Shown here in pieces: positions 6,146-61,631 of a DNA stretch of 64,000 nucleotides. The stretch comes from Candidatus Melainabacteria bacterium (GTDB lineage Bacteria; Cyanobacteriota; Vampirovibrionia; 2-02-FULL-35-15): positions 2,110 to 66,109 of the forward strand of contig JAHFBE010000001.1 in NCBI GenBank assembly GCA_023250205.1, given 5' to 3'. A program made the translations under genes and the position numbers. Numbering within the stretch: position 1 is the first letter of the stretch; every line of letters starts with the position of its first letter. The notes beneath the pieces were generated by a model. It was given only the letters and a program-made list of their open reading frames with translations, was not told where the DNA came from and did no database searches.

Positions 6146-6156
6146 GATTTAAAAAA

Positions 6157-6607
6157 TGAAGTTTCTCATAAGCCGGGTTTTGTTTATGCAGTTATCTATC
6201 TAGGAGTATTGTCACCAATACCCTCAAGCGGTTTCAGCAGAATTGAGCAGCGGGCCACTGTTATCCAATCCTATACCTTATCCTTGCACCTTTAGCGGGG
6301 TTTACCAAGATTACAGTCACCTGTAAAATTCGTGAGCTCTTACCTCACGGTTGCACCCTTACCGACATGCGTATTGAGTATCGTGTACTGAGTATTACAT
6401 CAATAAAAAAAATCTTATTCTCTGACGCAATACTCAATACTCCATACGCAAGAAGGCGGTCTACATTTCTGTGGCACTTTCCTCACACTTACATGCACTT
6501 CGCATTACGAAGCAACCAGCCCTCTGGAGCCCGGACTTTCCTCATTCCATTGTTTTTCACCTAATTAGGCATACGATCAATGAAACGCAACTGCTTGAGA
6601 AACTTCA
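6157..6607 (-). ncRNA. rnpB: RNase P RNA, bacterial type A
   Basis: Minus strand reads GAGGAAAGTCCGGGCTCCA, AGTGCCACAGAAA..ACCGCC, GGTAAGGGTG, GGTAAGAGCTCAC, GGTAAACCCC and ACAAAACCCGGCTTA in the canonical order. Terminal P1 pairing is TGAAGTTTCTC (5') with GAGAAACTTCA (3'). Confidence 0.93.
6368..6449. repeat. heptamer-repeat hairpin (GCGTATTGAGTAT family) at about the P12 position of RNase P RNA
   Basis: Arms gcgtattgagtatcgtgtactgagtattac / gacgcaatactcaatactccatacgc with 7-nt periodicity, between ACCGCC and GGTAAGGGTG. Confidence 0.8.
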
Positions 6608-6868
6608 TGAGTATTATAACTTAAATCAAAATTTATTATCTTTTAATCAATTGTATGAGGAAAGTTAAATTAAAAATATTTAATTTTGTAAAGCAATAAA
6701 TATCCCTCAACCCTAAATAAAGAATAAATATAATCAAAAAACATTTAAATTCAACTCACTCAAAAAAAATTAGGGCTACCTCCTGTGACGTTCATCCCAC
6801 TGATGGGTAATTTGACTTCAGTAATCTCAAATTATGTGTTGGGATTTTTTTTGAAATGGGAGGTTCGT

Positions 6869-9868
6869 GTGAAAAAGATTATTTCAATTTTCTTAATCAT
6901 CGTTTTTGCATTTGTTTCTTTTGAATGCATAAGCACAAATGATGCATATGCTTCTAAAAAAGGAAGCAAAAAAGCTGGCAATAGTAAAAAAGGTAAGGGT
7001 GGGAAATCATCCAAGACTTCTTCTCAAGTATTTAGCAATACTGGAGAAACCACTTTATATGGCAGTGTTCTAATACCAACTGCTGATGAAGCAAATGTAC
7101 TTTTACCATCAGCTCAATTCGCTCAGGTCAGAAATGCAGGGGTAGAAAATTTAATTTTTACTCTTACATCTGCAGTTGATTCAACTATGGCATATAACAT
7201 TCCAAGTGAATCAGCGACAATTCAAAACAAAACTCTTAATAAGAAGTCTGGGAAATATATTGTTATTAGTTTATTTACTTTAACAAATCAATCAGGAATA
7301 ACAGTTTCCCCAAGCTCATTACCTTCAGATCAATACAAAATCACTATATCTGATGGTGACAGCCTTAATATAACAACTGAATCTTTTAAATTTGAACCAC
7401 CTGCACTAGTAGTTGGTACTGCTAAAACACAAACTACAAGTATTGTAACTGTTGATGACTTATCTGGAGATATGATTTCAGATGGAGCAGTTACAACAAG
7501 TACAAATGGTGCATTCTTTACTGAAGTAAGAGCTCAAAAACTTTCTACTGATTCTTCAGGTAAAAGTAGAAAAATTCGAGCTCAAACAACTGACGATGGA
7601 ACTGGTACAGGAGATACTGAGCCAGTAGATGATGCCCCAATAGATCCTGGTATTGTTAATGTAAATGATGGTGAGTTAACAGCTCTTTGGCCACTTACAA
7701 ACGATCCAGAAGTAAATGAAGATCAAGCTAATAATCCAGGTGTAGTTGATGAAAACACAACTCAAGCACTTGACTTACTAATAGAATCTGCGGATGGAGA
7801 TCTGGACAAATTAGAGGAATTTGCAGATGACGTAGTAAATGACAAAGTCGATGAATTTCAAGATGATTCATCTAATTCAGATTCAGACAATTCAGATTCA
7901 GGTGATTGTCCTGATCCTAAATTGTTAGCTGATCAATGTTCAAGTCCTAATGCAGAGTTAGGAGAAAAAGTTTTACAAACTTATATCAATAATCCTGCAT
8001 GTCAATTTGATGGTAAACAATTCATTGCTACATTACCTGTCATTAAAATCGCAGAAGTTTATTGTGAAAAAGCTAATCAAGAATTTGATGATCAAAAACC
8101 TTGTGAAATTTTTGCAATGATTCTTGCTGATTCTAAAAAGAATCCAAACTTTAAATTACCTTGTCCTCCACATCAATGTACAGAATTTGCCAATGTAAAA
8201 AATTGTGTAAATCCAACTGAACTTTGTGGTGGTCCTGGTCCAAACGGTCCTCAACAAGGCCCATTAGCACAAGTTACAGGTGGTCCTCAACAAAGTCCTC
8301 CTCCTCAACAAGGTGGTGGCTTTGGTGGTCCTCAGCAAGGTCCTCCTCCTCAACAAGGTGGTGGCTTTGGCGGTCCTCAGCAAGGTCCTCCTCCTCAACA
8401 AGGTGGTGGCTTTGGTGGTCCTCAGCAAGGTCCTCCTCCTCAACAAGGTGGTCCTGGTAACGGATGCTTTGCTCCTCCTCCAAAGGATTTATTCTGTAAG
8501 CAAATTGGAAAAGATATTCAAGCTTCAGAATGTGTCCCGGATCAATTTGGCGGTCCACAATGGACTATTGCTTCAACAAATGATATTAAATTCTGTGTTC
8601 CTGATATGATATTTGCTCCTCCAGGATTTACAGGAACAGTTCCAACTTCTAGTGAAATTGCACAACAATGTACTTTAGGCTCCTGCCACAATGAATGTGA
8701 TAGCAAATTTGGAAGACCTTTCCAAACATTTGGATTACAAACATTTGGCGGTCCACAGCAAGGTAGTCCTCAACAAGGTCCTCCTCCTCAACAAGGTGGT
8801 CCTCAGCAAGGTGGTGGATTTGGTGGTGGTCCTGGAAATTTCCAAGAACCTCCTTCAGCAGTTTGCCATCAAAAATGTGAAGCTAAAGCTGGACACTTAT
8901 CATGTAATCCATTTTCTTTAGCATTCAGTAAAAATTGCTGTTCACAAACACAACCAAACTTTGCTGCACAATTCGTTGGTCCACAACAAGGTGGCGGCTT
9001 TGGCGGACAAGGCGGCGGCTTTGGCGGACAAGGTGGCGGCTTTGGCGGACAAGGTGGTGGGCAACGTCCTATTCCTCCTGGTGGTAATATTCAAAACTGC
9101 TTATGTAACTCAGGTACATTTGATAGTGATGGATTTATTACTCAAGATGCAATAAACACTTGTAAGAATTCATGCCCTGACGGTACTGAATTAGTACTAC
9201 TATCAAGTGGTCAAAATGGCTGCTTACCAAAATGTAAAGAAGGTCAAACAAGAGAACCAGGAAGTAATTTTTGCAAAGGTGGAAGCAATGAAAATGATTG
9301 CCCTCCAGGTCAAACATTAGGACCTGATGGTCAATGTAAACCTTCTGGTGGTCAATGTCCTCCAGGTCAAATACAAGGACCTGATGGTCAATGTAAACCT
9401 GGAAGCGGAGACCAAGGTGGATTTGGATGCGATCCAAAAGATCCAAATTGTAAGCCTGGTGCACCACAACAAGGTCCTCCTCAACAAGGCGCTCCTCAAC
9501 AAGGTCCTCCTCAACAAGGTCCTCCTCAACAAGGTCCTCCTCAACAAGGTCCTCCTCAACAAGGTCCTCCTCAACAAGGTCCTCCTCAACAAGGTCCTCC
9601 TCAACAAGGTCCTCCTCCTCAAGGTGGCGACCAAGGTGGTTTCCAACCTCCTCCACAAGGTGGTCAACAACCTCCTCCACAAGGTGGTCAACAACCTCCC
9701 CCACAAGGTGGTCAACAACCTCCTCCACAAGGTGGTTTCCAACCTCCTCCTGGCGGTGACGGCGGCGGTTCTCCACCTCCTCCACCACCACCTCCTCCTC
9801 CACCTCCTCCTGATGGCGGCGGCGGCGGTTCTCCACCACCACCACCTCCTCCTCCTCCTCCTGGTTAA
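6869..9868 (+). CDS. secreted Cys-rich, Pro/Gln/Gly-repeat giant protein (about 1000 aa)
   Basis: Likely GTG start at 6869, 5 nt after GGGAGG. N-terminal signal-like KKIISIFLIIVFAFVSFECISTNDAYA. Multiple in-frame tandem repeats, many Cys, polyproline C-terminus. Terminator follows. Confidence 0.8.
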   Translation: MKKIISIFLIIVFAFVSFECISTNDAYASKKGSKKAGNSKKGKGGKSSKTSSQVFSNTGETTLYGSVLIPTADEANVLLPSAQFAQVRNAGVENLIFTLTSAVDSTMAYNIPSESATIQNKTLNKKSGKYIVISLFTLTNQSGITVSPSSLPSDQYKITISDGDSLNITTESFKFEPPALVVGTAKTQTTSIVTVDDLSGDMISDGAVTTSTNGAFFTEVRAQKLSTDSSGKSRKIRAQTTDDGTGTGDTEPVDDAPIDPGIVNVNDGELTALWPLTNDPEVNEDQANNPGVVDENTTQALDLLIESADGDLDKLEEFADDVVNDKVDEFQDDSSNSDSDNSDSGDCPDPKLLADQCSSPNAELGEKVLQTYINNPACQFDGKQFIATLPVIKIAEVYCEKANQEFDDQKPCEIFAMILADSKKNPNFKLPCPPHQCTEFANVKNCVNPTELCGGPGPNGPQQGPLAQVTGGPQQSPPPQQGGGFGGPQQGPPPQQGGGFGGPQQGPPPQQGGGFGGPQQGPPPQQGGPGNGCFAPPPKDLFCKQIGKDIQASECVPDQFGGPQWTIASTNDIKFCVPDMIFAPPGFTGTVPTSSEIAQQCTLGSCHNECDSKFGRPFQTFGLQTFGGPQQGSPQQGPPPQQGGPQQGGGFGGGPGNFQEPPSAVCHQKCEAKAGHLSCNPFSLAFSKNCCSQTQPNFAAQFVGPQQGGGFGGQGGGFGGQGGGFGGQGGGQRPIPPGGNIQNCLCNSGTFDSDGFITQDAINTCKNSCPDGTELVLLSSGQNGCLPKCKEGQTREPGSNFCKGGSNENDCPPGQTLGPDGQCKPSGGQCPPGQIQGPDGQCKPGSGDQGGFGCDPKDPNCKPGAPQQGPPQQGAPQQGPPQQGPPQQGPPQQGPPQQGPPQQGPPQQGPPQQGPPPQGGDQGGFQPPPQGGQQPPPQGGQQPPPQGGQQPPPQGGFQPPPGGDGGGSPPPPPPPPPPPPPDGGGGGSPPPPPPPPPPG
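8279..8455 (+). repeat. 45-bp tandem repeat, about 4 units (GGPQQGPPPQQGGGF)
   Basis: Read directly in the giant CDS. Confidence 0.9.
8990..9064 (+). repeat. 21-bp tandem repeat, about 3.5 units (GGGFGGQ)
   Basis: ggtggcggctttggcggacaa repeated. Confidence 0.9.
9467..9616 (+). repeat. 15-bp tandem repeat, 10 units (QQGPP)
   Basis: caacaaggtcctcct repeated, nearly perfect. Confidence 0.92.
9632..9751 (+). repeat. 24-bp tandem repeat, 5 units (QGGQQPPP / QGGFQPPP)
   Basis: caaggtggtcaacaacctcctcca repeated. Confidence 0.9.
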
Positions 9869-9886
9869 ATAGATAATAAAACATCA

Positions 9887-9921
9887 AAAGCCCTCTGAAT
9901 AAACTTAGAGGGCTTTTTTTT
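9887..9921. terminator. bidirectional rho-independent terminator between convergent genes
   Basis: AAAGCCCTCT ... AGAGGGCTTT stem flanked by an A-run and a T-run. Confidence 0.8.
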
Positions 9922-9935
9922 ATTCTATGGATTAT

Positions 9936-11435
9936 TTAATTACAGTAATATTCCCAAATAAAATACTTATGCGGGCCAGACACTTTATAATCTGGTAATT
10001 GTTCTTTATATATTAAATATGTTTCTAGTTTTGAAAGTTTCTTATCTCCAGAATGATTTTCATTCCACTTGCGACATAAATACCAGGAAAGGTTTGGAAG
10101 AATATTTGCTCTAGCATTTGGAAACCAACCAAGATTTAACAGAAATGCTCTCCAATGCCTGTTTTTAAAAGTCTTTGTCGGATACTTTGGGGTTTTCCAT
10201 TTAACTGGCTTACCATCTCTAAATACATCAATTTTTGTTCCATCCTTTAAAGTCCCAACAAAAACAAACCAAAAACTTGTTCTCGTAGGTGGAGCATACA
10301 TAGCCCATTTCTGATCTATTCTTAATGTATGTCCAATCCATTGTAAAGAATTTGGGATTTGATATTTTGGATACAGTGTCCAATAATTCCAAGCAAGTAT
10401 ATAGACAAACAAAAATCCAACAATCAAATTTAAGCCAAGTGTTTGTTTAACAGAAATTATTTTTTTACATATAACTAACTTACCAATTAGATTCCTACTA
10501 CTAAAGAAAAATTTGTTTAAAGAATCACTTACCTTATTAAATAAATTTATTTTCAGTATTAAACTATCCCAAATTTGTGACGGTAAAAACAAAATCATAG
10601 AAATCGATGATACCCATGGAAAAAAAGCGATTTCCATAGACGATCCCATTCCAATTTGAAATAAAATAAAAGCTAATATCATAAGTGTTCTTATAAAAAC
10701 TGTAAATATTGGAGAGAAAAGAAGCACAGTTCCTATAAATTCAAACCAATATGCTCCATACGTAAGAACTTTCATAAGCTCTGGTTTACTAAAAATGAAT
10801 CTCCCAAACGGTGTTATATAGTGATCATGACTTAAGGCATAGTAGACTGCTGTACCATTAGTCCACTCTTCAGTTCTGTGTTTAAAAACAATTGTTATTA
10901 AATACATAAGAGCTATCTGAGCAAGTATTGCAATGGTAGCCATTGAAAGCATTTTACTCGGAAGCTTCTCTTTAGATGGATTTAAAATACTATCCACCGA
11001 ATAGCATGCACCGAGTGGCAAGAACATACTCCAAAAGAGCATTTGCCTGAGTAATTCATCTCCTCCATTTGATAAAATCGGATTTCTAACATGCACTGAG
11101 AGCAACAAGAACCAGGATACAATAGTTGAAAGCTTTGTATTCAATCCTATTAATAATAAAAATGCAAATACTATAGCCATCAAAAAAATAAAAGCCTGAA
11201 CATAAAGACTTCCACTAATCATATTTAATGAAATATAGTTAGTATTGTAGTTGCCCATTTGCAAAATTCTGGTAAAGATTCCACTATCCGAATAAAAAGG
11301 TTCTAAATCACGAAATCGTTGAACAACATCAATGATTATTACCAATGCTATGCACATTCGAAATAAAGCTAGTGATCGTAAATCAATTCCAAACAATTGT
11401 TGAAATTTTTCTTTTATCCCATTTTTACTTTTCAT
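9936..11435 (-). CDS. HTTM-domain (vitamin K-dependent gamma-carboxylase-like) polytopic membrane protein
   Basis: N-terminal FGIDLRSLALFRMCIALVIIIDVV...FYSDSGI pattern, many TM helices, C-terminal DQKWAMYAPP block; recognised from memory of the family. Confidence 0.65.
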   Translation of the reverse strand: MKSKNGIKEKFQQLFGIDLRSLALFRMCIALVIIIDVVQRFRDLEPFYSDSGIFTRILQMGNYNTNYISLNMISGSLYVQAFIFLMAIVFAFLLLIGLNTKLSTIVSWFLLLSVHVRNPILSNGGDELLRQMLFWSMFLPLGACYSVDSILNPSKEKLPSKMLSMATIAILAQIALMYLITIVFKHRTEEWTNGTAVYYALSHDHYITPFGRFIFSKPELMKVLTYGAYWFEFIGTVLLFSPIFTVFIRTLMILAFILFQIGMGSSMEIAFFPWVSSISMILFLPSQIWDSLILKINLFNKVSDSLNKFFFSSRNLIGKLVICKKIISVKQTLGLNLIVGFLFVYILAWNYWTLYPKYQIPNSLQWIGHTLRIDQKWAMYAPPTRTSFWFVFVGTLKDGTKIDVFRDGKPVKWKTPKYPTKTFKNRHWRAFLLNLGWFPNARANILPNLSWYLCRKWNENHSGDKKLSKLETYLIYKEQLPDYKVSGPHKYFIWEYYCN

Positions 11436-11544
11436 AATAAGTAACAGTTTACAATTTATTCATGAAAAAGAAATAATCCGTAGGAATGAGTTTACGAACA
11501 AAGGTAAAGAATTTTACAAAACAACTAATACAATTTGGAACTTT

Positions 11545-12393
11545 TTATTTAACAGCTTGCAAAGAAAAGTATTTTTCTTTTATCCATTCAGGCTTTGCAA
11601 ATAGTTTTTCGTGAATTTCTTCATTCCAGTATTTTGTTTTTCCACTTGGAATATTTTTGATTTTCTTATCTAGGGGCTTATTTGAAGCAATTAAAAAAGA
11701 CCACATACAACCCGGGTATATAGGAATCATTGAAACAATAGCATCCACATATTTAAATGCTGTTCTAATATTTTCAAGGCTCATTTTAAATTCATTTTCC
11801 TGGATTAACAATGATCCACTTTGACAAATATAAATTCCATTTTCCTTTAAAGCTTTACTTGCATTTTTATAAAAATCCTTACTAATCAATCCAGCCGCAA
11901 ATCCCTCCGGATCTGTAGAGTCGCACAAAATAACATCATAAGATTTTTCTTGAGCATTTTTCATATACTCAATTGCGTCGTTTAATTTAATTTTTAACTT
12001 AGGATTATTCAACTCACAGGCAATTTCAGGGAAGTATTTTTTTGATACATTAATTACTTCTTCATCAATTTCAACAAGTTCAATATCTTCAACTGACTTA
12101 TACTTAAGAACTTCTCTTACTGTTCCCCCATCTCCACCACCAATTACCATGATTTTTTTGGGGCGTGGGTGAATTGAAACGGCTGGATGAACTATTGATT
12201 CGTGATAGTAGAATTCATCTTTTTCAGAAACCATTGTTTTTCCATCAAGAAGCATAAGGTTCCCCATAGTAACAGTATCCAGAATTTCAATATTCTGATA
12301 TTTGGATTTTTTCGAGTAAAGCGAGCCTTTAGTTTTTATTGCTGTAGCAAAAGGCATATCATCTTCAAAGAACCATCCATCTTTCATTAACAT
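11545..12393 (-). CDS. speE: spermidine synthase
   Basis: VIGGGDGGTVREVLK and DSTDPEG motifs; 282 aa. Confidence 0.9.
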   Translation of the reverse strand: MLMKDGWFFEDDMPFATAIKTKGSLYSKKSKYQNIEILDTVTMGNLMLLDGKTMVSEKDEFYYHESIVHPAVSIHPRPKKIMVIGGGDGGTVREVLKYKSVEDIELVEIDEEVINVSKKYFPEIACELNNPKLKIKLNDAIEYMKNAQEKSYDVILCDSTDPEGFAAGLISKDFYKNASKALKENGIYICQSGSLLIQENEFKMSLENIRTAFKYVDAIVSMIPIYPGCMWSFLIASNKPLDKKIKNIPSGKTKYWNEEIHEKLFAKPEWIKEKYFSLQAVK

Positions 12394-13011
12394 TTATTTT
12401 CTCCCAACCAAGTTTTTTTCCATCACAATTTTTTGTTTGCTTTTTTCAATTACATTTTTCATCCAGGTCTGCGTAGCATTCTTTTGTCCCTGATAATGCC
12501 CTTTTTGTTTATACGATCTCATTACAGGAATATTTCTTTGAAAAACCATCTGGGCTATGGGCTGTCCATTTTTTAACAGCAGTGGTGCTTTACCTTGATT
12601 TGTTAACTCTACGACTGCAGCTCCTTCAAATCCTGAATCAAATAATCCAGCAGACTCTACATAAAGCCCTACTCGTGCCCAGCTAGACTTTCCCTGAAGG
12701 ACTCCATGCAATGCAGAACCAAAATAAAAGTATTCTTGCGTAACAGCTAAAACAAAATCACCTGGTTTTAAAACAAACTCATCAACTATAATTTCTTCAA
12801 AAGAACCATCGCTTAACTGAATCGCAAAATGATTTCCTAGGTGAACATCCAAGCTATTGGGCTGAATAGCTTCATCCCTATAATTATCAATTTTCAAAAG
12901 TCCTAACTTTAAATATAGTTTTAATTGCCAATCAACAAGATTTCCACTTGAGAAAAATAAAAGATAAATTCCAAAAATGAAAAGTGTTATTAATAATATA
13001 GAAAGAATCAT
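12394..13011 (-). CDS. dcd: dCTP deaminase family protein with a hydrophobic N-terminal extension
   Basis: IQPNSLDVHLG, GKSSWARVGL and GFEGAAVVELTN blocks; the first ~22 aa are hydrophobic. Confidence 0.8.
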   Translation of the reverse strand: MILSILLITLFIFGIYLLFFSSGNLVDWQLKLYLKLGLLKIDNYRDEAIQPNSLDVHLGNHFAIQLSDGSFEEIIVDEFVLKPGDFVLAVTQEYFYFGSALHGVLQGKSSWARVGLYVESAGLFDSGFEGAAVVELTNQGKAPLLLKNGQPIAQMVFQRNIPVMRSYKQKGHYQGQKNATQTWMKNVIEKSKQKIVMEKNLVGRK

Positions 13012-13031
13012 ATCTAAGTATTATATATTGT

Positions 13032-13057
13032 TAGGAACGTAGCATGCTACGTTCCTA
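13032..13057. repeat. 26-bp perfect palindrome TAGGAACGTAGCATGCTACGTTCCTA (GTAGG...CCTAC family)
   Basis: Read directly; contains the purN stop codon and its last codons. Confidence 0.85.
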
Positions 13058-13649
13058 CTTTCACAAAGACCTTCCCAATAGCCTCAATTAACAATTTATG
13101 CTCTTCTATCAATATTCTCTTTGATAGACTTTCTACCGTATCACCAGGTATTACAGGTATCTTCCTTTGAGCAATAATAGGACCAGCATCTACTTCAGCA
13201 GTAACAAAATGAACAGTACAACCACTTTCTTTTACAGCGCTTTTTAATACCGCTTCATGAACATATTTTCCGTACATTCCTTTTCCACCAAAATCTGGCA
13301 AAAGCGCCGGGTGAATATTTATAATTTTATTTGTAAATGCATTAATAAATTCTTCACTTAAAACTTTCATATATCCAGCAAGAACAATTAAATCAACATT
13401 ATAATTACTAATAGTTTTTATTAAATTTTTATCGTATTCAATACTGCTTACAAAATCCTTTGGGTTAACAAAGATTGCATTAATACCAGCACTTCTTGCT
13501 CTTTCAAGAGCAAAGGCATCTTTTTTATTTGAAATTACAGCAGCTATTTCAACATAATTTAACTTACCCGCTTTTATCGCATCAATTATTGCCTGTAAGT
13601 TTGTACCTGATCCCGAAGCTAGTACTACTATTTTTCTTTTTAATGACAT
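13047..13649 (-). CDS. purN: phosphoribosylglycinamide formyltransferase
   Basis: VLASGSGTNLQAIIDA and INIHPALLP motifs; 200 aa. Confidence 0.92.
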   Translation of the reverse strand: MSLKRKIVVLASGSGTNLQAIIDAIKAGKLNYVEIAAVISNKKDAFALERARSAGINAIFVNPKDFVSSIEYDKNLIKTISNYNVDLIVLAGYMKVLSEEFINAFTNKIINIHPALLPDFGGKGMYGKYVHEAVLKSAVKESGCTVHFVTAEVDAGPIIAQRKIPVIPGDTVESLSKRILIEEHKLLIEAIGKVFVKVGT

Positions 13650-13652
13650 TGT

Positions 13653-13778
13653 TTAATTTGTAATTTGTTGAATAATGGTATTTAACAAAGTATCTTTGAT
13701 CAACAAAGCTTTCTTTTTTGAAAAGACTGCTTTTTTGCTCTTCATAACAAATGATTTCTTCTGTTTTGTCTTTTTCAT
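13653..13778 (-). CDS. possible small basic protein, 41 aa (MKKTKQKKSFVMKSKKAVFSKKKALL...)
   Basis: Below the ORF-track cutoff. ATG 4 nt after GGGAGGA; fills the kpsF-purN gap exactly (stop 3 nt before the purN start). Confidence 0.35.
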   Translation of the reverse strand: MKKTKQKKSFVMKSKKAVFSKKKALLIKDTLLNTIIQQITN

Positions 13779-13788
13779 AAATCCTCCC

Positions 13789-14784
13789 TTAGATAATTCC
13801 TTTTTTTAAAAGATCTTTTAAATCCACAATTCCAACAGGTTTGCGTGATTTATTTAAAACAATTAGGTCTGATATCCTGAAATCTTCCATAATTTTTAGT
13901 GCACTTGCCGCAAGGTCATTTTCATTTATAATTTTTGGACTTCTGTTCATTAGACATAATGCTGTTTTTGAAGATACTTCTCCTTCAGCTTTTAAATATG
14001 CCCTTCTTATATCTCCATCAGTTATTGATCCAACAAGTTCATCTTCACTATTTAAAACTGTAGTAAACCCAAGCTTCTTATCGTTGATTTCCTCAAGAAC
14101 TTTATTAAAAGGAGTACTTTCTCTTACAACCGGAATTTCTTTATCACTCCTCATTACATCTTTAACCTTTATCAAGTTCTTACCAAGTGAACCTCCTGGA
14201 TGAGACTTTGCAAAATCTTCTGTAGTAAATCCTTTTCTTTGCATAAGAGTAACAGCAATTGCATCACCAAGCGCTAATGTAGCTGTAGTACTTGCAGTAG
14301 GTGCAAGGTTTAAAGGACAAGCTTCTTTTTCAACTTTTACATATAGTGAAACATCACTACTTTGAGCGAGAGTAGAACTTTCATTCCCTGTTATGGATAT
14401 AAGCTTTATACCAAGTCTTTTAATTGGGAATAAGATTTTCTTTAATTCATCAGTTTCGCCAGAAAATGAAAGAGCTAACATTACATCACTACTAGTAAGC
14501 ATTCCAAAATCACCGTGTGCCAGTTCTGCTGGATGAACAAAAAATGCAGGAGAGCCCGTACTTGCAAGAGTGGCAGCAATCTTACTTCCAATATGCCCTG
14601 ATTTTCCCATTCCAGTTACAACTATTCTTCCCTTACAAGAAAACAGGATATCAATAGCACAATCAAAATCTTTAGACTGTTTTTTCTCAAGATCATTAAT
14701 AAGATCCTTAATGGCCTTTTGTTCTATTGCAAGGACTTCAATAGCATTTTTAGTATTTTCAGATATTGTAAGTATTTGCGACAT
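13789..14784 (-). CDS. kpsF: arabinose-5-phosphate isomerase (KpsF/GutQ family; SIS plus tandem CBS domains)
   Basis: VTGMGKSGHIG SIS motif and two C-terminal CBS-like repeats; start taken at the ATG (MSQILT) rather than the upstream GTG at 14802. Confidence 0.9.
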   Translation of the reverse strand: MSQILTISENTKNAIEVLAIEQKAIKDLINDLEKKQSKDFDCAIDILFSCKGRIVVTGMGKSGHIGSKIAATLASTGSPAFFVHPAELAHGDFGMLTSSDVMLALSFSGETDELKKILFPIKRLGIKLISITGNESSTLAQSSDVSLYVKVEKEACPLNLAPTASTTATLALGDAIAVTLMQRKGFTTEDFAKSHPGGSLGKNLIKVKDVMRSDKEIPVVRESTPFNKVLEEINDKKLGFTTVLNSEDELVGSITDGDIRRAYLKAEGEVSSKTALCLMNRSPKIINENDLAASALKIMEDFRISDLIVLNKSRKPVGIVDLKDLLKKGII

Positions 14785-14849
14785 ATTTATATAATACAAC
14801 ACCCGTAGGTATGGGGTATGCTAACAAATCGAGAATAAACAGCATAAAT

Positions 14850-14926
14850 GTCATTGCGAGCCGAATGAAATGAGGCGTGGCAATCCCGATCGGGACTGCT
14901 TCGTCGCTCATGCTCCTCGCAGTGAC
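14850..14926. repeat. MITE-like palindromic element (short copy)
   Basis: GTCATTGCGAGCCGAATGAAATGAGGCGTGGCAATCCCGATCGGGACTGCTTCGTCGCTCATGCTCCTCGCAGTGAC. Confidence 0.8.
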
Positions 14927-14963
14927 ATGTTAAAGTTATCCTCGAAAAGTTTACACACCCCAC

Positions 14964-14995
14964 CCGTAGGTACGCGATTAATCGCATACCTACGG
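14964..14995. repeat. 32-bp near-perfect palindrome CCGTAGGTACGCGATTAATCGCATACCTACGG in the kpsF/trmL divergent intergenic region
   Basis: Read directly, one mismatch; a half-site CACCCGTAGGTA recurs at 14800-14811. Confidence 0.8.
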
Positions 14996-15008
14996 ATATA
15001 ATTAATTT

Positions 15009-15653
15009 ATGGTAATCCGTTCTAAACAAAGATTAAATATTTTTAAGCCCTACAACATTGTTCTTGTAGAACCTGAAATACCTCCAAATACAGGCAACAT
15101 AGCTCGACTCTGTTCTGCAACAAACACAAAGTTACACCTTGTGCATCCTTTAGGATTTAAGATTTCAGATAAAGAACTTAAAAGAGCAGGTCTTGATTAC
15201 TGGCATTTGCTGGATGTACAAGAATATCAAAATTGGGAGGAATTTTATCTAAACCACTCTACAAAACGTCATTGCGAGAAGCCCTCACGCTTCGCTCAGG
15301 GTAAACTCCGCGACGAAGCAATCTCCAAAACGTTAGGGGATTGCCATGTCGGTGCTAGCGCCCCTCCTCGCAATGACAGTGAAGTAAAATTTTGGTACAT
15401 CTCTACCCGCGGTGAAAAAAACATCTGGGATGTAGAATTTAATCCAGGAGATTATTTAATCTTTGGGAGCGAGACAAAAGGACTAAGCGAAAATATTGTA
15501 GAAGATAAAAGAAACAAAGATTCCATAATTTCTATTCCAATGAACGGTAAAGCCAGAAGCTTAAACCTTTCTACTGCAGCTGGCATTGTATTATATGAAG
15601 CATTAAGGCAAGTGACTGTGGAAAAAAAACTAATTAAGTTAACGTCAATATGA
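15009..15653 (+). CDS. trmL: tRNA (cytidine/uridine-2'-O)-methyltransferase TrmL (SpoU family) carrying a 39-aa repeat-derived insertion
   Basis: NIVLVEPEIPPNTGNIARLC and SLNLSTAAGIVLYEALRQ match TrmL; the extra length is accounted for by the element at 15268-15376. Confidence 0.85.
   Translation: MVIRSKQRLNIFKPYNIVLVEPEIPPNTGNIARLCSATNTKLHLVHPLGFKISDKELKRAGLDYWHLLDVQEYQNWEEFYLNHSTKRHCEKPSRFAQGKLRDEAISKTLGDCHVGASAPPRNDSEVKFWYISTRGEKNIWDVEFNPGDYLIFGSETKGLSENIVEDKRNKDSIISIPMNGKARSLNLSTAAGIVLYEALRQVTVEKKLIKLTSI
15268..15376. repeat. MITE-like palindromic element inside the trmL reading frame
   Basis: GTCATTGCGAGAAG...GACGAAGCAATCTCCAAAACGTTAGGGGATTGCC...CCTCCTCGCAATGAC; translated RHCEKPSRFAQGKLRDEAISKTLGDCHVGASAPPRNDSE. 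Confidence 0.85.
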
Positions 15654-17062
15654 ACAATGAGAACAAAAATCGTCATTGCGAGGAGGATAGCGACGAAGCA
15701 ATCTCCAAAACGTTAGGAGATTGCCGCGTCAGTGCTAATGCACCTCCTCGCAATGACAGTGAAATTCCAATCTACAACACCTTAAAAGATTACTTATCTA
15801 AAACTCCTGTTCGAATGCATGTCCCATTTCACAATGGAATTCCTAATAATGGCATTCTCCCAAAAGAACTTTACAACATAGATATTTCCGAAGTAAGCGG
15901 ATATGACATAGAAGGGGAAGACAATCCTATCTTTCAATCCGAGAAAATTACTGCTGATTTTTTTGGCGTAAAGCATTCTTTTTATTTAACCGGAGGAGCA
16001 AGCATTGGATTGTTAGCAAGTTTAATTGCACTGAATAAATATGGTAAGAAGGTAATTCTTGCAAGGAATGTTCATAAATCAGTAATCAATGGGGTGATTT
16101 TAAGCGGACTTGAACCTGTTTGGCTTGAGGTAGACTTCCTTGACAATTGGGGGATATTCTCAAAAGTTAATTCTGACAAGCTTGAACAATTGATATTAAA
16201 TGAACCAGAAGTAGCTGGATGTGTAATCGTATCTCCTACTTATGAAGGTGTCATTTCAGACATTAAATCTATTTCAGAGATTTGTCACAAGAAAAATATT
16301 CCTTTGATTGTAGATGAAGCACATGGAGCACATTTGTGGTTTTTAAGAGAACGGAAGCACGAAGTACGAGGCACGAAGCAAGAAAAAACATCTACTGGTA
16401 AGCTTAGCGCCGATCTCACCATCCAATCATGGCATAAATCTCTTGGAAGTTTAACTCAAAGTGGTGTTTTACATCTAGCAAATGAAAGATTTTTTTCGTA
16501 TAACGATATAAAACGTTCTTTAGATTTAGTTAGTTCTACAAGTCCATCTTTTTTACTTTTACTATCTCTAGAATTAACAAGAAAACATTTTTCAGAGACC
16601 AACGGTTTATTTCTTAACCAATTATTAACCCTTTCAGAATCTTTAAAATCAGAAATGAAAGAAATTCAAGATATTGAAATTTTTAATAGTGAGGATCCAT
16701 TTAAACTTTATATAAAATTAAAAAATATTTCCGGAATTGATCTTGGATTTGAATTATACAAGAATCATTCAATTGAGATTGAAAGTGCAAACGACATTGG
16801 ACTTCTAATGTTAATTGGGCGGGGATTTAACAATGAATTAAAAAATAAAATCATTAATGCAATTAAAGAAATTGCTCCATGTAAGGGCACGCCATGGCAT
16901 GCCCCAACAAAAGGCAAGCCACACACAAATAAATTTAAATCAAATCCTCGCAATGCATTCTTGAATGGATTTCAAAATAAAACAAATTGCGAATATGAAT
17001 CAGAAATAGTTGCACCATGTCCACCAGGATATGCTATGAATGTACCAGGAATGCCTACATGA
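15650..17062 (+). CDS. Orn/Lys/Arg decarboxylase family PLP enzyme (Bacillus SpeA-like)
   Basis: IPIYNTLKDY...MHVPFHNG N-terminal block, DEAHGAH and SWHKSLGSLTQSG (PLP lysine) blocks. ATGA overlap with the trmL stop. Two in-frame repeat insertions. Confidence 0.85.
   Translation: MNNENKNRHCEEDSDEAISKTLGDCRVSANAPPRNDSEIPIYNTLKDYLSKTPVRMHVPFHNGIPNNGILPKELYNIDISEVSGYDIEGEDNPIFQSEKITADFFGVKHSFYLTGGASIGLLASLIALNKYGKKVILARNVHKSVINGVILSGLEPVWLEVDFLDNWGIFSKVNSDKLEQLILNEPEVAGCVIVSPTYEGVISDIKSISEICHKKNIPLIVDEAHGAHLWFLRERKHEVRGTKQEKTSTGKLSADLTIQSWHKSLGSLTQSGVLHLANERFFSYNDIKRSLDLVSSTSPSFLLLLSLELTRKHFSETNGLFLNQLLTLSESLKSEMKEIQDIEIFNSEDPFKLYIKLKNISGIDLGFELYKNHSIEIESANDIGLLMLIGRGFNNELKNKIINAIKEIAPCKGTPWHAPTKGKPHTNKFKSNPRNAFLNGFQNKTNCEYESEIVAPCPPGYAMNVPGMPT
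15672..15756. repeat. MITE-like palindromic element inside the decarboxylase reading frame (codons 8-38)
   Basis: GTCATTGCGAGGAGGATAGCGACGAAGCAATCTCCAAAACGTTAGGAGATTGCCGCGTCAGTGCTAATGCACCTCCTCGCAATGAC; translated RHCEEDSDEAISKTLGDCRVSANAPPRNDSE. Confidence 0.85.
16354..16388. repeat. GAAGCAC-type heptamer array (5 units) inside the decarboxylase CDS
   Basis: gaagcac gaagtac gaggcac gaagcaa gaaaaaa; translated RKHEVRGTKQEK. Confidence 0.8.
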
Positions 17063-21595: not shown

Positions 21596-23680
21596 TTATT
21601 CAAGCCATGGTTCTTTTCCTTCATTTTTCTTCAATTGAAGTTTAACGTCTTCCGGTAACTCATCAAAAGAGATTTCTCTAGTCTCGCTAGAAATCAAACG
21701 TCCAGAATATTCTATAGGGAACTTAACTGCCAGCGTAGATATTCTTGCTTTTTGTTGCTCTACTCCAATTCTATTTTCAAGCTCAGTAACTCTATCTAAT
21801 AAAGCTTGATCCATAACTCTGTTTTTTGGATCTAAGCACTTTTCATCTAACGAAGCTTCAAGAGTTTTGATTTGTTTTAATTCCAAATCATTTTTTCCCA
21901 GAAGTTCAGAAAATCTCTCTAGCAATTTAGACTGTGGTGACATTTGTGTTAGAGTATCTCTTATTTCACATCTAACATCATGGAGCAATTTTCGGGCTTC
22001 ATGATATTTATCATCAATAAATGTTCCAATCTTACAAATATCTCTTTGTAGATCCATCTGATTTGCACTGGTTCTCAATTGAGCTTCTTTTTGAATTAAT
22101 TCTTCAAGCCTCATATCTGTTTTTAAAAGAGAAGAGATTTCATCACTTTTAATTAGATTTCTAAGTTCTCTATCACTCTCTGAATACCTAATTTTTGCTA
22201 CATGTAACTTATTAGATTCTTTAACCATAGATGGATCCTGCTGTGCTGTTCTAAGTTCACGCAAAGAACTTACATATTGTTCTCCAAGTCCACCTTGCTC
22301 ATAGATTTTCTCTCTTGCCTGTAACATCTCAATCTTATACTCTGGAGTACTAGCACTATCTTTTTCAATGACTGTACCTGCAAAATTACACTGACTTTCT
22401 TCAGGACATAATACATAATCAATCGCTTCAGATACTGAAGGTAAGCTTTGTGATTGAATTCGAAGACAGGCTTTCAAGTTTCCCTCAATTAATCGTAAAA
22501 AATTACTTGCTGAGTCTTTGAAGAATTCTCTGGCAGCTTCTGAGCCTTGAAACTCTTCTCTGAATTCATTCTTTGCCTGCTCTGGCAATCCATTGAACAC
22601 TTGGCCTGGTATTGTGATTTTCATTGCAAAAGAAGGCATTAATTTTCCTGTTACCAGATCAAATCTACACAATTGTGTTTCAATCAGATTTGAAAGCGCA
22701 AGTTTTGCAGAATCATGATCTTCAAACAAGTCCATAAAATCACTGTGTCTTTTAGCTATATTAAATAATTCTTCCTTGCCTTGTTCTGTCAGCTTTTTAT
22801 TCTCAATGTGTGTTTCTCCTTCCTCTTCACGCTCTACTTTTACCCTTCCACTGTCAAGATGCAAGAGAGTTTCTTCTAAGAACTGTGCAATTTCTTGCCG
22901 CATTAAAGATGAGGGTATATATAAAAGCTCAGAAAATCCTATAGATGAAAAAACGGTTGTACTCCCTTTAGTAATTTCATCCTTAAGTCCTTTACAAATA
23001 GCACCTGCCAATTCTTCTTCTGTCAGGAACGATCTGCCTAATGCATTTAGTGCGTGATTTTGTTCATGAGCACTAAATTCAGAAGCACTTGCAAATCCTG
23101 CTCTTACAAGATGAACTGCAACACCTGTTTTATGAATCTCAAAGATATAAGCTCCTCCCACATTATCTCCAAATTTAGCTCCCTTAATTTGTTCTATAAC
23201 TTCACGTGGCAATACCTTAGATACTAATTCTTCAGGTAATCCTTTTAAAATATCAAGTGGTAATTTGGGAATAATCCCTTTAAGCACTCCTAAAGGGAGG
23301 CTACTCAGCATTGGGACCATAGCAGCAGCTTTTAATTCTAAAGCTTTATCTACTGAAACAATTTCAGGGATTAATTTTAAGACCTTAGCAGGATCTAACT
23401 TTAATTCTTTTGCTATTCTTTCAATCCACTTATTACCCGATTCCTGACAGTCCCTTATAATTTCTTCATCAGTGAAACTTAAATTTGGTGAGGATTGAAC
23501 TCTTGCTACAGATACTTTCTTTAGTGTCCCAGCTTGTTCTGCCCTATCAAGCAAACCATCTAAAACATCTGATACATTATCAACACGAGCTACTTCAATC
23601 TGTGCAGGTTTTTGCCCAGAAGCTGATGTGTCTTTAACTATTGGAGTTCCTTCTATTCCTTGAATTCCTACCGGTTTCAA
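21596..23680 (-). CDS. large hypothetical protein, 694 aa, with an HExxH motif and a coiled-coil C-terminal third
   Basis: Long ORF with a TTG start in the track; AHEQNHAL at 23054-23068; heptad-rich C-terminus. Confidence 0.6.
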   Translation of the reverse strand: MKPVGIQGIEGTPIVKDTSASGQKPAQIEVARVDNVSDVLDGLLDRAEQAGTLKKVSVARVQSSPNLSFTDEEIIRDCQESGNKWIERIAKELKLDPAKVLKLIPEIVSVDKALELKAAAMVPMLSSLPLGVLKGIIPKLPLDILKGLPEELVSKVLPREVIEQIKGAKFGDNVGGAYIFEIHKTGVAVHLVRAGFASASEFSAHEQNHALNALGRSFLTEEELAGAICKGLKDEITKGSTTVFSSIGFSELLYIPSSLMRQEIAQFLEETLLHLDSGRVKVEREEEGETHIENKKLTEQGKEELFNIAKRHSDFMDLFEDHDSAKLALSNLIETQLCRFDLVTGKLMPSFAMKITIPGQVFNGLPEQAKNEFREEFQGSEAAREFFKDSASNFLRLIEGNLKACLRIQSQSLPSVSEAIDYVLCPEESQCNFAGTVIEKDSASTPEYKIEMLQAREKIYEQGGLGEQYVSSLRELRTAQQDPSMVKESNKLHVAKIRYSESDRELRNLIKSDEISSLLKTDMRLEELIQKEAQLRTSANQMDLQRDICKIGTFIDDKYHEARKLLHDVRCEIRDTLTQMSPQSKLLERFSELLGKNDLELKQIKTLEASLDEKCLDPKNRVMDQALLDRVTELENRIGVEQQKARISTLAVKFPIEYSGRLISSETREISFDELPEDVKLQLKKNEGKEPWLE

Positions 23681-25894: not shown

Positions 25895-26020
25895 GTCATT
25901 GCGAGGAACCCAAGGGGCAACGCGGCAATCTCATTTAGATATAACAATTTTGAGCAGGACAATAAATTGATAGCTGTCAGCAGAGATTGCTTCGTCGGGC
26001 TTTGCCCTTCTCGCAATGAC
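25895..26020. repeat. MITE-like palindromic element upstream of the thiolase gene
   Basis: GTCATTGCGAGGAACCCAAGGGGCAACGCGGCAATCTC ... GAGATTGCTTCGTCGGGCTTTGCCCTTCTCGCAATGAC. Confidence 0.85.
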
Positions 26021-26096
26021 ATAGAATATTTATCCTTGATTTATTAGCACACCCCTTATAAATATGGGAAAATATTAGCTAACAGGAGTTAAATAA

Positions 26097-29950: not shown

Positions 29951-31333
29951 TTATTTAGGGATATAAGCACATTGTAACAATTTCAAGCTTAGTCCATAAG
30001 CAAATTTGCTTGTAGTATTTCTTCTGGCTACTTTTTTATCTTCCAGCTCTATATAATAACGTGTGTTTTGAATCAATCCTTCCGCAAATCTTGTATCAGG
30101 ATTGTTTCTTGCTATTTCTTTATCTATCTCTTCTATTTTATAACTTGGATTTATTGTTATCGAATAAGCAAATTCACTATTCAAATTTTCCCTTGCAGAT
30201 TTTCTGTCTTTTAAAGTAATTTTATATGATTGAGTTTTAGCCAGTTTAGCAACAGAACTTTTTACATTTGCTCTAGCAAACTCTTTCTGGGGTTCTTTAA
30301 TCTTAAAATTTGTATTTTGAACAAGAGATTTTGCAAGCTGTGTATTTGGGTACTTTATAACAAAATCTCTATCTTCATTGTCCACATAATATGAGATATT
30401 TCTCCCGATAGCCTCAGCAAATTTTGAATTTGGATGTGCCTTTGCAATTTCCTTATCTTTAGGCTCAACTTTATAGTTTTCATTCAAACACAAACCAAAT
30501 GTAAATTTACTATCAACATTAGTTCTTACAATATCTCTATCATCCTGCTCAATCTTATATCCCTTATTCAAGGACAATCCACTAGCAAAGCTAGTATTTA
30601 TGTTACTTCTGGCTATTATTTTGTCATCAAACTCTACCTGATAAGTAGATAGCTGTGTCAATATTGATGAAGTTAGTTCATTTATATTCTCTCTTGCAAA
30701 CAATTTATCTTCAAGCTCTACTCTAAATCCAAAGTTTCTAACTAACCCTTCTGCAAATTTGCTTTTTGGGAAATTGTAAAGAATAAGCTTGTCATCATAA
30801 TTAATCTTATATTTTTTATTTTTTGCAATTTCTTTAGCAAAATCACTACCCGGGTTATTTCGAGCATATTCTTTATCAAATTCACTTACCTGATAATTAG
30901 GATTATGAATCAATCCCAGACTAAGTTTTGAATGAGGATTATTTCTTAAGAACTTTCTATCTGTTTCAGTAATTTCATAGCTTGATTTTTGAGATATCTG
31001 CTCTGCAAAGCTGCTATCAGGATGTTTAAAAGCATAGTTTTTATCCCCATCATCCACTTTATAAGCAGGATTTTGTAAAAGCCCTAGAGCAAAATTTGAA
31101 TCTAACTGTTTTCTTGCAACTTCTTTATCAATTTGTTCAATCTTATAAATAGAATTCTTGGCAAGATTCAAAGCATACAAAGTGCGTGGATTATTCCGTG
31201 CAGCTTCTCTGTCTTCAGGGTCAATTGTACAGTAGAAATTTAGAGGGTGTTTTTTAGCATACACTCCTATACACTGAACTCCAATGCTTACAAGAATCAA
31301 AAAGATTAGAGATTTATTTAAGATTTTATTCAA
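29951..31333 (-). CDS. secreted protein (possible lipoprotein) of fifteen 28-aa repeats
   Basis: TTG start; N-terminal LIFLILVSIGVQC; 15 consecutive 28-aa units counted by hand. Confidence 0.75.
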   Translation of the reverse strand: MNKILNKSLIFLILVSIGVQCIGVYAKKHPLNFYCTIDPEDREAARNNPRTLYALNLAKNSIYKIEQIDKEVARKQLDSNFALGLLQNPAYKVDDGDKNYAFKHPDSSFAEQISQKSSYEITETDRKFLRNNPHSKLSLGLIHNPNYQVSEFDKEYARNNPGSDFAKEIAKNKKYKINYDDKLILYNFPKSKFAEGLVRNFGFRVELEDKLFARENINELTSSILTQLSTYQVEFDDKIIARSNINTSFASGLSLNKGYKIEQDDRDIVRTNVDSKFTFGLCLNENYKVEPKDKEIAKAHPNSKFAEAIGRNISYYVDNEDRDFVIKYPNTQLAKSLVQNTNFKIKEPQKEFARANVKSSVAKLAKTQSYKITLKDRKSARENLNSEFAYSITINPSYKIEEIDKEIARNNPDTRFAEGLIQNTRYYIELEDKKVARRNTTSKFAYGLSLKLLQCAYIPK

Positions 31334-41841: not shown

Positions 41842-41932
41842 GTCATTGCGAGGAGGCTCAAAGAGCCGACGTGGCAATCTAATAACGTTATGGAGATTGC
41901 TTCGTCAGGACTTTGTCCTTCCTCGCAATGAC
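41842..41932. repeat. MITE-like palindromic element
   Basis: GTCATTGCGAGGAGGCTCAAAGAGCCGACGTGGCAATCT ... GAGATTGCTTCGTCAGGACTTTGTCCTTCCTCGCAATGAC. Confidence 0.88.
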
Positions 41933-60749: not shown

Positions 60750-61631
60750 TTAACCAACAAGTTCAATAGCCTGTTGAACTAGTCTGTCAGCAACTTTGTG
60801 TGAATTAATTGCTGCAGCATATTGTCTTTGAGCTTCGATGATGTAATCAACTTCAACTTTAGTCCAAACATTGGATGCTTCTAAAGCTTCATTGAAAACA
60901 AGTGCATTACATGGTAGTGGAGCTCCACTTTCAGAGGTCTCTTTCCAGTAGGTACTACGGAAATTTTTCAAACCGTTGAGATTTTGGAAATTACGAGTGG
61001 CAACTTTATATAGTGAAACTTCACTGTCACCATATTTACCCCAGATAACTCCGGCTTTATCAATTCTAAGCTTTTCATATTTTCCAAGATATAAACCATT
61101 TGTTGGATCCATTCCAAGGTTAATTGGTTGTGGCTTACCAGCTTCCTGACCTGAGCCTACTGCTGGATAATTTCTTTTAGCTGGATTGCTAAGTGGATCT
61201 GCAAAAATATCAAATTCAAGCTTTGGTCCTAATTTGTTGTATTTTGAATTTCCTGATTGTTGAACATTTGACTGTAATGGAGTTCCTAACACAAGAAAAC
61301 CTTCTGCTGAAGTCATATATCCATTTTTATCAAAATTAAAATCACCAAGTCTTGTATAAACCACTTCATTATTTTCTGGATTTAATACTGTAAAGAATCC
61401 TTTTCCTCTTAACATCATTTTGGTTGGTTCACCAATTCTTGTAATTTGTTTACCTTGTCTCCAGGCAAAACCAGCATCTTCCATTGTGCCGCCATTTAAA
61501 TAGTCTCTAAATGTAAATCTTTTTGCATTATAACCAGGTGTTTCACCATTCATGACATTCTGAGTTAAAAAATCAATCATTTCTAGTGATGACTGTGCTG
61601 AGTTTGCTGCTACTATTGTGGTATTTAACAT
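60750..61631 (-). CDS. flagellar rod/hook family protein (FlgE/FlgF/FlgG-like)
   Basis: N-terminal ...LTQNVMNGETPGYNA and C-terminal LEASNV...IIEAQRQYAAAINSHKVADRL conserved flagellar axial-protein ends. Confidence 0.75.
   Translation of the reverse strand: MLNTTIVAANSAQSSLEMIDFLTQNVMNGETPGYNAKRFTFRDYLNGGTMEDAGFAWRQGKQITRIGEPTKMMLRGKGFFTVLNPENNEVVYTRLGDFNFDKNGYMTSAEGFLVLGTPLQSNVQQSGNSKYNKLGPKLEFDIFADPLSNPAKRNYPAVGSGQEAGKPQPINLGMDPTNGLYLGKYEKLRIDKAGVIWGKYGDSEVSLYKVATRNFQNLNGLKNFRSTYWKETSESGAPLPCNALVFNEALEASNVWTKVEVDYIIEAQRQYAAAINSHKVADRLVQQAIELVG

Follow-up and report, generated by a model that had tools for sequence, protein, structure and literature searches.

The window analysed here, a stretch of 64,000 nucleotides from a Candidatus Melainabacteria bacterium (GCA_023250205.1, contig JAHFBE010000001.1, positions 2,110 to 66,109 of the forward strand), carries at positions 6869-9868 (+) the gene that is the subject of this work, called gene X below. 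It is the sole long open reading frame (ORF) of this region. Its product of 999 amino acids (aa) contains 15.4% Gly, 14.3% Pro, 11.0% Gln and 3.5% Cys and would be an exported protein in which small disulfide-bonded modules alternate with low-complexity spacers. An initial annotation had described a secreted-type, Cys-rich ORF of about 1000 residues; this description agrees with the size of the product, its GTG start backed by a Shine-Dalgarno sequence, its signal-peptide features and the 34 Cys of the mature protein.

The ORF list gave the range 6785..9868 (+). The GTG at 6869 is a better start than position 6785 because GGAGG is found 4 nt upstream and the N-termini of homologues (MKKFISIFL...) coincide there. 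Gene X has its own terminator, situated between it and a convergent gene (Table 1). Other ORFs overlap the repeats in other frames or on the other strand (8224-8609; 9138-9887, reverse strand; 9317-9742, reverse strand; 9327-9872). They are 60-249 aa long, with translations rich in Leu, Val, Glu and Arg, and were rejected as genes, being by-products of stop-free G/C-rich repeats.

Table 1. Features of gene X and its product (positions in the window; G/P/Q/F denotes Gly, Pro, Gln and Phe; AF2, AlphaFold2; the slash in AYA/S marks the predicted cleavage site)
Feature	Protein (aa)	Window	Strand	Description
Shine-Dalgarno GGAGG		6860..6864	+	4 nt ahead of GTG; read from sequence
Signal peptide	1-28	6869..6952	+	MKK, 16-residue hydrophobic region IISIFLIIVFAFVSFE (mean Kyte-Doolittle 2.66), then AYA/S
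Lys-rich mature N-terminus	29-52	6953..7024	+	net charge +9; KGKKGK or AKKK at the same place in homologues
N-domain	53-225	7025..7543	+	predicted Ig-like beta-sandwich; best-conserved part of the family
Acidic linker	226-346	7544..7906	+	net charge -28; partly helical in model; poorly conserved
Cys module A	347-455	7907..8233	+	9 Cys; helical in AF2; Cys columns invariant in alignments
Spacer 1	456-532	8234..8464	+	91% G/P/Q/F, uncharged; holds the 45-bp array
45-bp array, 3.9 copies		8279-8452	+	96% matches, score 327; peptide GGPQQGPPPQQGGGF
Cys module B	533-618	8465..8722	+	7 Cys, positions conserved; hairpin and helix in AF2
Spacer 2	619-665	8723..8863	+	G/P/Q/F-rich; degenerate 15-bp repeat 8750-8815
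Cys module C	666-700	8864..8968	+	5 Cys (CHxxC...CC)
Spacer 3	701-743	8969..9097	+	holds the 21-bp array
21-bp array, 3.4 copies		8986-9057	+	96% matches; peptide GQGGGFG
Cys module D	744-862	9098..9454	+	13 Cys; two CPPGQxxGPDGQCKP hairpin modules 9299-9400; CDPKDPNC loop 9428-9451
P/G/Q tail	863-999 (137 aa)	9455..9865	+	uncharged; 15-bp and 24-bp arrays, then two polyproline runs 9771-9862
15-bp array, 10.6 copies		9467-9625	+	95% matches, score 290; QQGPP; seven consecutive DNA-identical copies 9500-9604
24-bp array, 5.0 copies		9632-9750	+	91% matches; QGG(Q/F)QPPP: three QGGQQPPP flanked by two QGGFQPPP
Bidirectional intrinsic terminator		9886..9917	.	13-bp stem, A-run before, T-run after; between gene X and the convergent 9936-11435 gene

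The signal-like N-terminus initially noted is indeed present, and the AxA/(A)KKK pattern at its predicted cleavage site is conserved across the family described below. The first 350 residues had been taken as ordinary-looking. They are actually the most conserved part of the protein and comprise the Lys-rich stretch, a beta-sandwich domain and the acidic linker. Of the 35 Cys, the 34 of the mature protein, an even number, occupy invariant or near-invariant alignment columns, among which C357, C378, C412, C432, C437, C446, C453 and C533. Both announced copies of CPPGQxxGPDGQCKP were recovered, CPPGQTLGPDGQCKP at aa 811-825 and CPPGQIQGPDGQCKP at aa 830-844. Spacers 1-3 and the tail (304 aa together) contain one Lys/Arg, four Asp/Glu and neither Tyr nor Trp. 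In the almost uncharged G/P/Q/F-rich stretches, 13 of 19 Phe adjoin Gly. The tail sequence SPPPPPPPPPPPPPDGGGGGSPPPPPPPPPPG matches exactly the polyproline ending described at first, and the protein terminates with ...SPPPPPPPPPPG.

As a rough guide to folding, two AF2 models were obtained from multiple sequence alignments of 3-5 sequences, with a mean predicted local distance difference test score (pLDDT) of 46-51. Within this shallow alignment the N-domain is modelled as a beta-sandwich with pLDDT 54-90 overall and 71-90 for aa ~70-177. Module A reaches ~80-84 over its first part, modules C and D 65-77 and module B 47-65, while all spacers stay below 35 and are devoid of secondary structure. 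Profile and structure searches, of the kind that the initial annotation had proposed, assigned no family: the window protein had zero matches in Pfam (E <= 1) and NCBIfam (E <= 0.1), PDB sequence searches gave nothing below E = 0.17 with the single sequence or E = 0.78 with the family profile, and two Foldseek searches against PDB returned generic Ig-like similarity only (best E = 0.03 and 0.6).

Relatives of gene X and the slot it occupies

With aa 50-455 as query, phmmer was run exhaustively against 1.84 billion cluster representatives and returned 48 matches with E values from 1.3e-118 to 1e-5, 32 of them at E <= 1e-30. The match begins at aa ~35-50 in each, and most of these relatives are 900-2200 aa long. 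Two of the 48 are named entries, OGI13234.1 (from Candidatus Melainabacteria bacterium RIFCSPLOWO2_02_FULL_35_15) and MBI3589872.1, both recorded as 'hypothetical protein [Candidatus Melainabacteria bacterium]'. When the N-terminal domain was used to scan the species genomes of GTDB, a single locus emerged, MFRN01000035.1, again of RIFCSPLOWO2_02_FULL_35_15, whose flanking genes share 72-89% protein identity with those of the window. A word-index homologue search returned 2, 0 and 3 matches and missed proteins that the exhaustive search recovered; used with Cys modules A-D, it found nothing. The core had no match in Pfam, NCBIfam or PDB for any family member, and literature searches on Melainabacteria combined with cysteine-rich, proline-rich or low-complexity proteins returned nothing on the family. 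Gene X belongs to an unnamed conserved family whose named members are so far all from Melainabacteria (Vampirovibrionia).

Gene X displays the traits of this family, namely an N-domain directly after the signal peptide, the Cys pattern A-D and low-complexity spacers at fixed positions. In common with OGI13234.1 and MBI3589872.1, it has the AxA/KKK signal peptide, the N-domain, the acidic linker, Cys modules A-D and the genomic slot, whereas the repeat units GGPQQGPPPQQGGGF, GQGGGFG, QQGPP and QGGQQPPP are specific to its own genome. The slot has the order transketolase, TrpRS, CN hydrolase, (methyltransferase-like gene, RNase P RNA), X, (SdpB-like gene), SpeE, Dcd, PurN and KpsF, and is occupied in at least six genomes (the window, L003, L005, L007, L011 and L012).

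Orthologues from the slot include P0051 and P0036, and the similar proteins P0037, P0041 and P0044 share spacer and tail features with them. In proteins of this slot type the spacers are 64-91% G/P/Q/F and 29-41% of all residues lie in such low-complexity sequence, compared with 0-6% in other family members. Phe stands mostly beside Gly, there is hardly any Tyr or Trp, and few residues carry a charge. Tails ending in (G)QPPPP or polyproline are found also in P0051, L003 paralogue 2, P0036, P0037, P0041 and P0044. The repeat units differ from genome to genome: GGPQQGGPQGGFG and PQQGFPQGQ in P0051, GGPGGFG in L003 paralogue 2, GFGPPPGGD in P0036. The alignments indicate that spacer composition is kept among slot orthologues while the repeat sequence turns over.

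In most members of the family (class I) the spacers are short, and the C-terminal part carries long arrays of Cys-repeat, Ig-like or FN3 modules. The CDPxDPNCKP loop of module D is seen again in P0042, P0044 and P0048, which are distant members. Accessory domains are sporadic in the family and all of extracellular types: fn3, Pur_ac_phosph_N, DUF4215 and Laminin_G_3 (1.7e-20), the last being a lectin-type domain inserted after the N-domain in P0011. DUF4215 (Myxococcus cysteine-rich repeat, PF13948) matches 2 of 35 family members and does not match the window protein. Paralogues of class I type are present elsewhere in the genome as tandem pairs (L006/L009, L008 and the P0025-P0023 contig). 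In L003, a reference Melainabacteria metagenome-assembled genome, the slot itself holds two tandem copies (9986-13504 and 13741-16848), one with a tail of CPxxxPIRCPDGSCxVTQLEC repeats, the other with GGPGGFG spacers, a polyproline tail and an N gap.

Gene X changes faster than its surroundings. Against L011 and L003 the conserved flanking proteins are 72-89% identical, compared with 68-69% for the gene X N-domain and 39-58% for the Cys modules; against L012 the flanking proteins are still 60-86% identical, the N-domain is at 27% and the rest of X is undetectable by tblastn. In the closer pairs, the ratio of nonsynonymous to synonymous substitution rates (dN/dS) is 0.15-0.19 for the N-terminal part of gene X and 0.06-0.13 for neighbouring genes, with no sign of positive selection in the N-domain. 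These values point to purifying selection on gene X, relaxed about two-fold relative to its neighbours, as in a functional, fast-evolving gene. A dN/dS well below 1 and the conserved Cys also rule out that gene X is a spurious ORF.

Tandem repeats and the question of assembly

The arrays were delimited with Tandem Repeats Finder and the individual copies printed for inspection (Table 1). The copy numbers first reported, about four for the first repeat, about 3.5 for GGGFGGQ and ten for QQGPP, are borne out by this analysis. For QGGQQPPP, five 24-bp units were found as announced, but only three have this peptide and the other two read QGGFQPPP. Similarly, the contrast of GC-rich repeats with an AT-rich genome is real (0.56-0.60 for the repeats, ~0.34 for the window) but merely an effect of amino-acid composition: the excess is due to Gly, Pro and Gln codons, which are almost exclusively the AT-biased synonymous choices GGT, CCT and CAA, and it is not a sign of foreign DNA.

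The likeness to eukaryotic elastomeric, extensin or glutenin proteins that had been put forward holds for composition and does not extend to homology. A eukaryotic origin of gene X, or the horizontal acquisition of an extensin-, glutenin- or elastin-like gene, would explain the QQGPP, GGGFGG and S-Pro(n) motifs and the locally high GC. The codons are nevertheless the native AT-biased ones, synteny is conserved across Melainabacteria, the detectable relatives amount to 48 clusters of which the named ones are from Melainabacteria, there is no Pfam match, and the protein has no YxY, no G-X-Y periodicity and three S-Pro(n) motifs only. Codon usage, synteny and relatives effectively refute such an origin, which we regard as extremely improbable.

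Individual families of this kind were also considered. Plant extensins and hydroxyproline-rich glycoproteins resemble gene X in their signal peptide and in two long S-Pro(n) runs, which in gene X are in the tail. An extensin was rejected on the basis of three S-Pro motifs (with at least three Pro), the absence of YxY, six mature Tyr and a Tyr content of 0.7%. An extensin would also carry prolyl hydroxylation and O-arabinosylation, and no sign of the machinery for them was noted. For prolamins and high-molecular-weight (HMW) glutenins there is no Pfam match at E <= 1, the search with aa 50-455 gives only the 48 relatives, and PGQGQQ or GYYPTSPQQ units are absent. A collagen-like protein (Scl, BclA) was also rejected: Gly is equally frequent in all three phases (fractions of 0.29-0.35) and the longest (GXY)n run is 2.

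Recent expansion or continuing length variation had been proposed from the near-perfect DNA repeats, and three observations support it: copies are 91-96% identical, a nearly identical contig differs by deletions of whole units in two arrays, and orthologues have other units in the corresponding places. This contig, L001, is a MEGAHIT contig from another assembly, 99.96% identical to the window, that ends inside X at window position 8426. Over the stretch of X that it covers, it differs from the window only in lacking eight 15-bp units and one 24-bp unit, with 0 mismatches in the 1029 bp preceding the arrays. A second MEGAHIT contig from another assembly, L002, is 100% identical and ends inside X at 9500. 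The difference in the 15-bp array could be a k-mer collapse, whereas that in the 24-bp array is more likely a real difference of length because this array is shorter than k = 141.

Such contig ends raise the possibility that the repeat region is an assembly artefact, with unreal copy numbers or module joins. Arrays of 159-174 bp exceed k, both MEGAHIT contigs carrying the neighbouring gene stop in arrays, L001 has fewer units in two of them, five out of seven metagenome loci terminate within the homologous gene, and paralogue 2 of L003 is interrupted by its N gap. However, outside the arrays independent contigs are 100% or 99.96% identical with the reading frame intact. Modules and spacers also follow one another in this order in P0051, which is complete on a 24-kb contig, and in P0036, which lies intact on a contig of 495 kb that, to judge by its name, comes from a long-read assembly. 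Moreover, a difference of one unit in an array shorter than k is unlikely to result from graph collapse. At most the copy numbers would be affected. An artefact is thus improbable; gene X and its layout are real and the exact copy numbers in the window alone are uncertain. Most short-read contigs break within this gene family, which systematically disrupts such assemblies and is therefore under-represented and truncated in protein databases.

Possible roles of the gene X product

We consider it about an even bet that gene X encodes a Sec-exported, disulfide-stabilised 'beads-on-a-string' protein serving as a structural or adhesive component of the envelope or surface. Cleavage at AYA/S would expose the Lys-rich N-terminus, followed by the predicted Ig-like beta-sandwich, the strongly acidic linker and then the Cys modules and spacers. 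Four small Cys-knotted modules (34 Cys) would alternate with three uncharged G/P/Q/F spacers, in which Phe is mostly beside Gly, and the polyproline-ended Pro/Gly/Gln tail of 137 aa would close the chain. The protein would be located outside the cytoplasm, in the periplasm or at the surface of a lipopolysaccharide (LPS)-bearing diderm, and its Cys modules would be oxidised. Export and oxidation are suggested by the conserved signal features, the even Cys count, the extracellular-type domains of paralogues, a DsbA neighbour at another locus and the presence of LpxB in the window. Spacers and tail are presumed to be intrinsically disordered, elastomer-like or polyproline-II stalk-like, and could provide reach, extensibility or cohesion. 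Their arrays would grow and shrink by replication slippage, selection holding composition and not sequence. A sheath, adhesive or matrix role, as first proposed, is plausible and fits the FN3 and Laminin_G_3 domains of paralogues together with DsbA at the second locus. More generally, proteins of this family probably count among the main constituents of the envelope or surface.

At this second locus, a pair of paralogues stands divergent beside a gene for a secreted DsbA-like thioredoxin with a CPFC motif (L006/L009 and L008; L009 6212-9739, equal to L006 2279-5803, and L008 919-1641). Beyond DsbA, L006/L009 carry a TauE-like fragment, an FKBP peptidyl-prolyl isomerase (PPIase), an uncharacterised gene of 324 aa and a YkuD L,D-transpeptidase. 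It is plausible that the DsbA, FKBP and YkuD neighbours assist exported proteins rich in Cys and Pro in their folding or anchoring.

Several points weigh against a structural or adhesive surface component. The mature protein has no other transmembrane (TM)-like segment, LPXTG or lipobox, and thus no recognisable anchor, nor does the protein have a recognisable outer-membrane export signal. No conserved operon partner was found at the window's locus, and the DsbA adjacency was observed solely at the other locus, in two related genomes. To judge from export in E. coli, Sec substrates seldom have a charge as high as +9 right behind the cleavage site, and this makes the topology less certain. Finally, the overall confidence of the AF2 models is low, and the PDB and Foldseek searches were uninformative.

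Alternatively, though we hold it to be unlikely, the protein could be a periplasmic tether or spacer, its Lys-rich N-terminus being attached to peptidoglycan (e.g. by an L,D-transpeptidase) or to anionic polymers and its Pro-rich rods working like those of TonB or TolA. The diderm cell suggested by LpxB, the lack of a recognisable outer-membrane export signal, the conserved mature N-terminus AxA/(A)KKK, the polyproline tail and the proximity of YkuD L,D-transpeptidase and FKBP PPIase to paralogues of the second locus are all consistent with it. TonB and TolA are also proteins of the diderm envelope with rigid Pro-rich segments. Unlike them, the gene X protein has no retained N-terminal anchor, the AxA site being present, no TonB_C or TolA domain in Pfam or NCBIfam searches, and is Cys-rich and modular. 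Furthermore, paralogues reach 1500-2200 aa and contain FN3, Ig-like and lectin-type modules of the sort usual in surface proteins, a divergence far faster than that of neighbouring genes is expected of an exposed protein, and the YkuD link concerns one locus only.

The same rapid divergence, together with paralogues that occur in tandem and in several copies per genome, a lectin-type insertion in one member and repeat counts that differ between near-identical strains, would also suit an adhesin of variable type, or a factor for attacking or attaching to the cells of a prey, host or partner, with divergence and repeat variation used for antigenic or phase variation. Some Vampirovibrionia are epibiotic predators. 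Nonetheless, all observed array differences are in frame and would not produce on/off switching, the N-domain has a dN/dS of 0.15-0.19 without positive selection, and no toxin or secretion-system neighbours were found. We consider this reading unlikely.

If the gene X product is indeed a structural or adhesive component of the envelope or surface, its nearest experimentally studied bacterial analogy would be, for the P/G/Q tail, the C-terminal stalks of staphylococcal wall-anchored proteins. These are Pro/Gly-rich, disordered, biased to an extended polyproline-II conformation and thought to hold functional domains off the wall (PMC10367597). The gene X protein differs from them in having no LPXTG, TM segment or sortase context, in its diderm host and in its spacers, which are uncharged, FG-containing and set between Cys modules. 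An LPXTG/sortase-anchored protein was thus rejected, given the terminal ...SPPPPPPPPPPG and the absence of a TM-like segment in the mature part.

Among eukaryotic proteins, HMW glutenin, flagelliform silk (GPGGX), abductin (GGFGGMGGGX) and GLFG nucleoporins have, like gene X, uncharged Gly/Pro/Gln tandem repeats with Phe beside Gly, and in both eukaryotic elastomers and gene X the repeats are flanked by Cys regions that could cross-link. Gene X shows no detectable homology to them, its repeat units are different, its codon usage and synteny are native in a bacterium, and any elastic or cohesive behaviour is presumed. The composition of its spacers, with Phe by Gly, no Tyr or Trp and almost no charge, also fits FG-nucleoporins as a purely functional analogy. 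One may speculate, at rather long odds, that slot orthologues are what bacteria have in place of the cohesive or elastomeric low-complexity proteins of eukaryotes (FG-nucleoporin, glutenin or abductin type), forming an elastic, possibly selectively permeable hydrogel-like layer in the envelope or at the surface of non-photosynthetic cyanobacteria. Uncharged FG/Q/P repeats would there be strung between disulfide-knotted modules, and their composition would outlast deep divergence even as the individual repeats are replaced.

Gene X falls within a familiar general class, that of modular secreted repeat proteins, and stands out by its conserved alternation of disulfide modules with uncharged FG/Gln/Pro repeats. 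This composition between disulfide modules is kept over a deep divergence at which neighbouring proteins are still 60-86% identical, and to our knowledge composition-level conservation of disordered repeats has rarely been documented in bacteria. Melainabacteria, whose cell envelope is nearly undescribed, are the non-photosynthetic lineage closest to cyanobacteria. Gene X defines in them a conserved multi-copy family, so far found in this lineage only and with no relative in Pfam, NCBIfam or PDB.

Neighbouring genes and other features of the window

The gene convergent with X (9936-11435, reverse strand) encodes a 499-aa multi-pass membrane protein without Pfam match, whose similarity to the SdpB family (TIGR04033, 2.8e-9) is weak and below threshold. 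This SdpB/HTTM-like neighbour is beside X in L011 and absent from the slot in L003 and L012. On the other side, immediately upstream of X and divergent from it, lies a bacterial RNase P RNA of class A (6154-6606, reverse strand, 453 nt), with a full-length model match of 218.6 bits.

The window contains housekeeping genes, LpxB and a flagellar FlgE/F/G-domain protein. LpxB indicates that the host is an LPS-bearing diderm, which is probably flagellated. The lineage 2-02-FULL-35-15 is, in GTDB, a Vampirovibrionia order with two genomes only (PMC11853062). In L013 (5595-14567), a family member of 2188 aa is located directly downstream, on the same strand, of FliJ, a 264-aa gene and a gene with an FlgE/F/G D1 domain. 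This flagellar adjacency is not repeated in the window, where the FlgE/F/G-domain gene (60750-61631, reverse strand) has no family member beside it.

Two ORFs of 694 and 460 aa (21596-23680 and 29951-31333, both on the reverse strand) have no Pfam match at 1e-5. A direct repeat of 74 nt (15310-15383 and 15690-15763, forward strand), with copies 91% identical and 380 bp apart, is located in a SpoU-methylase ORF and in the next ORF; partial ends of it are found at 41888-41908 (reverse strand) and 26006-26026 (forward strand). It may be a small element resembling miniature inverted-repeat transposable elements or repetitive extragenic palindromes, inserted in coding sequence. Lastly, the gene at 35102-36769 (forward strand) encodes a 555-aa protein made up nearly entirely of HEAT/PBS-lyase-like repeats, in a region with a local GC of 0.40-0.42.

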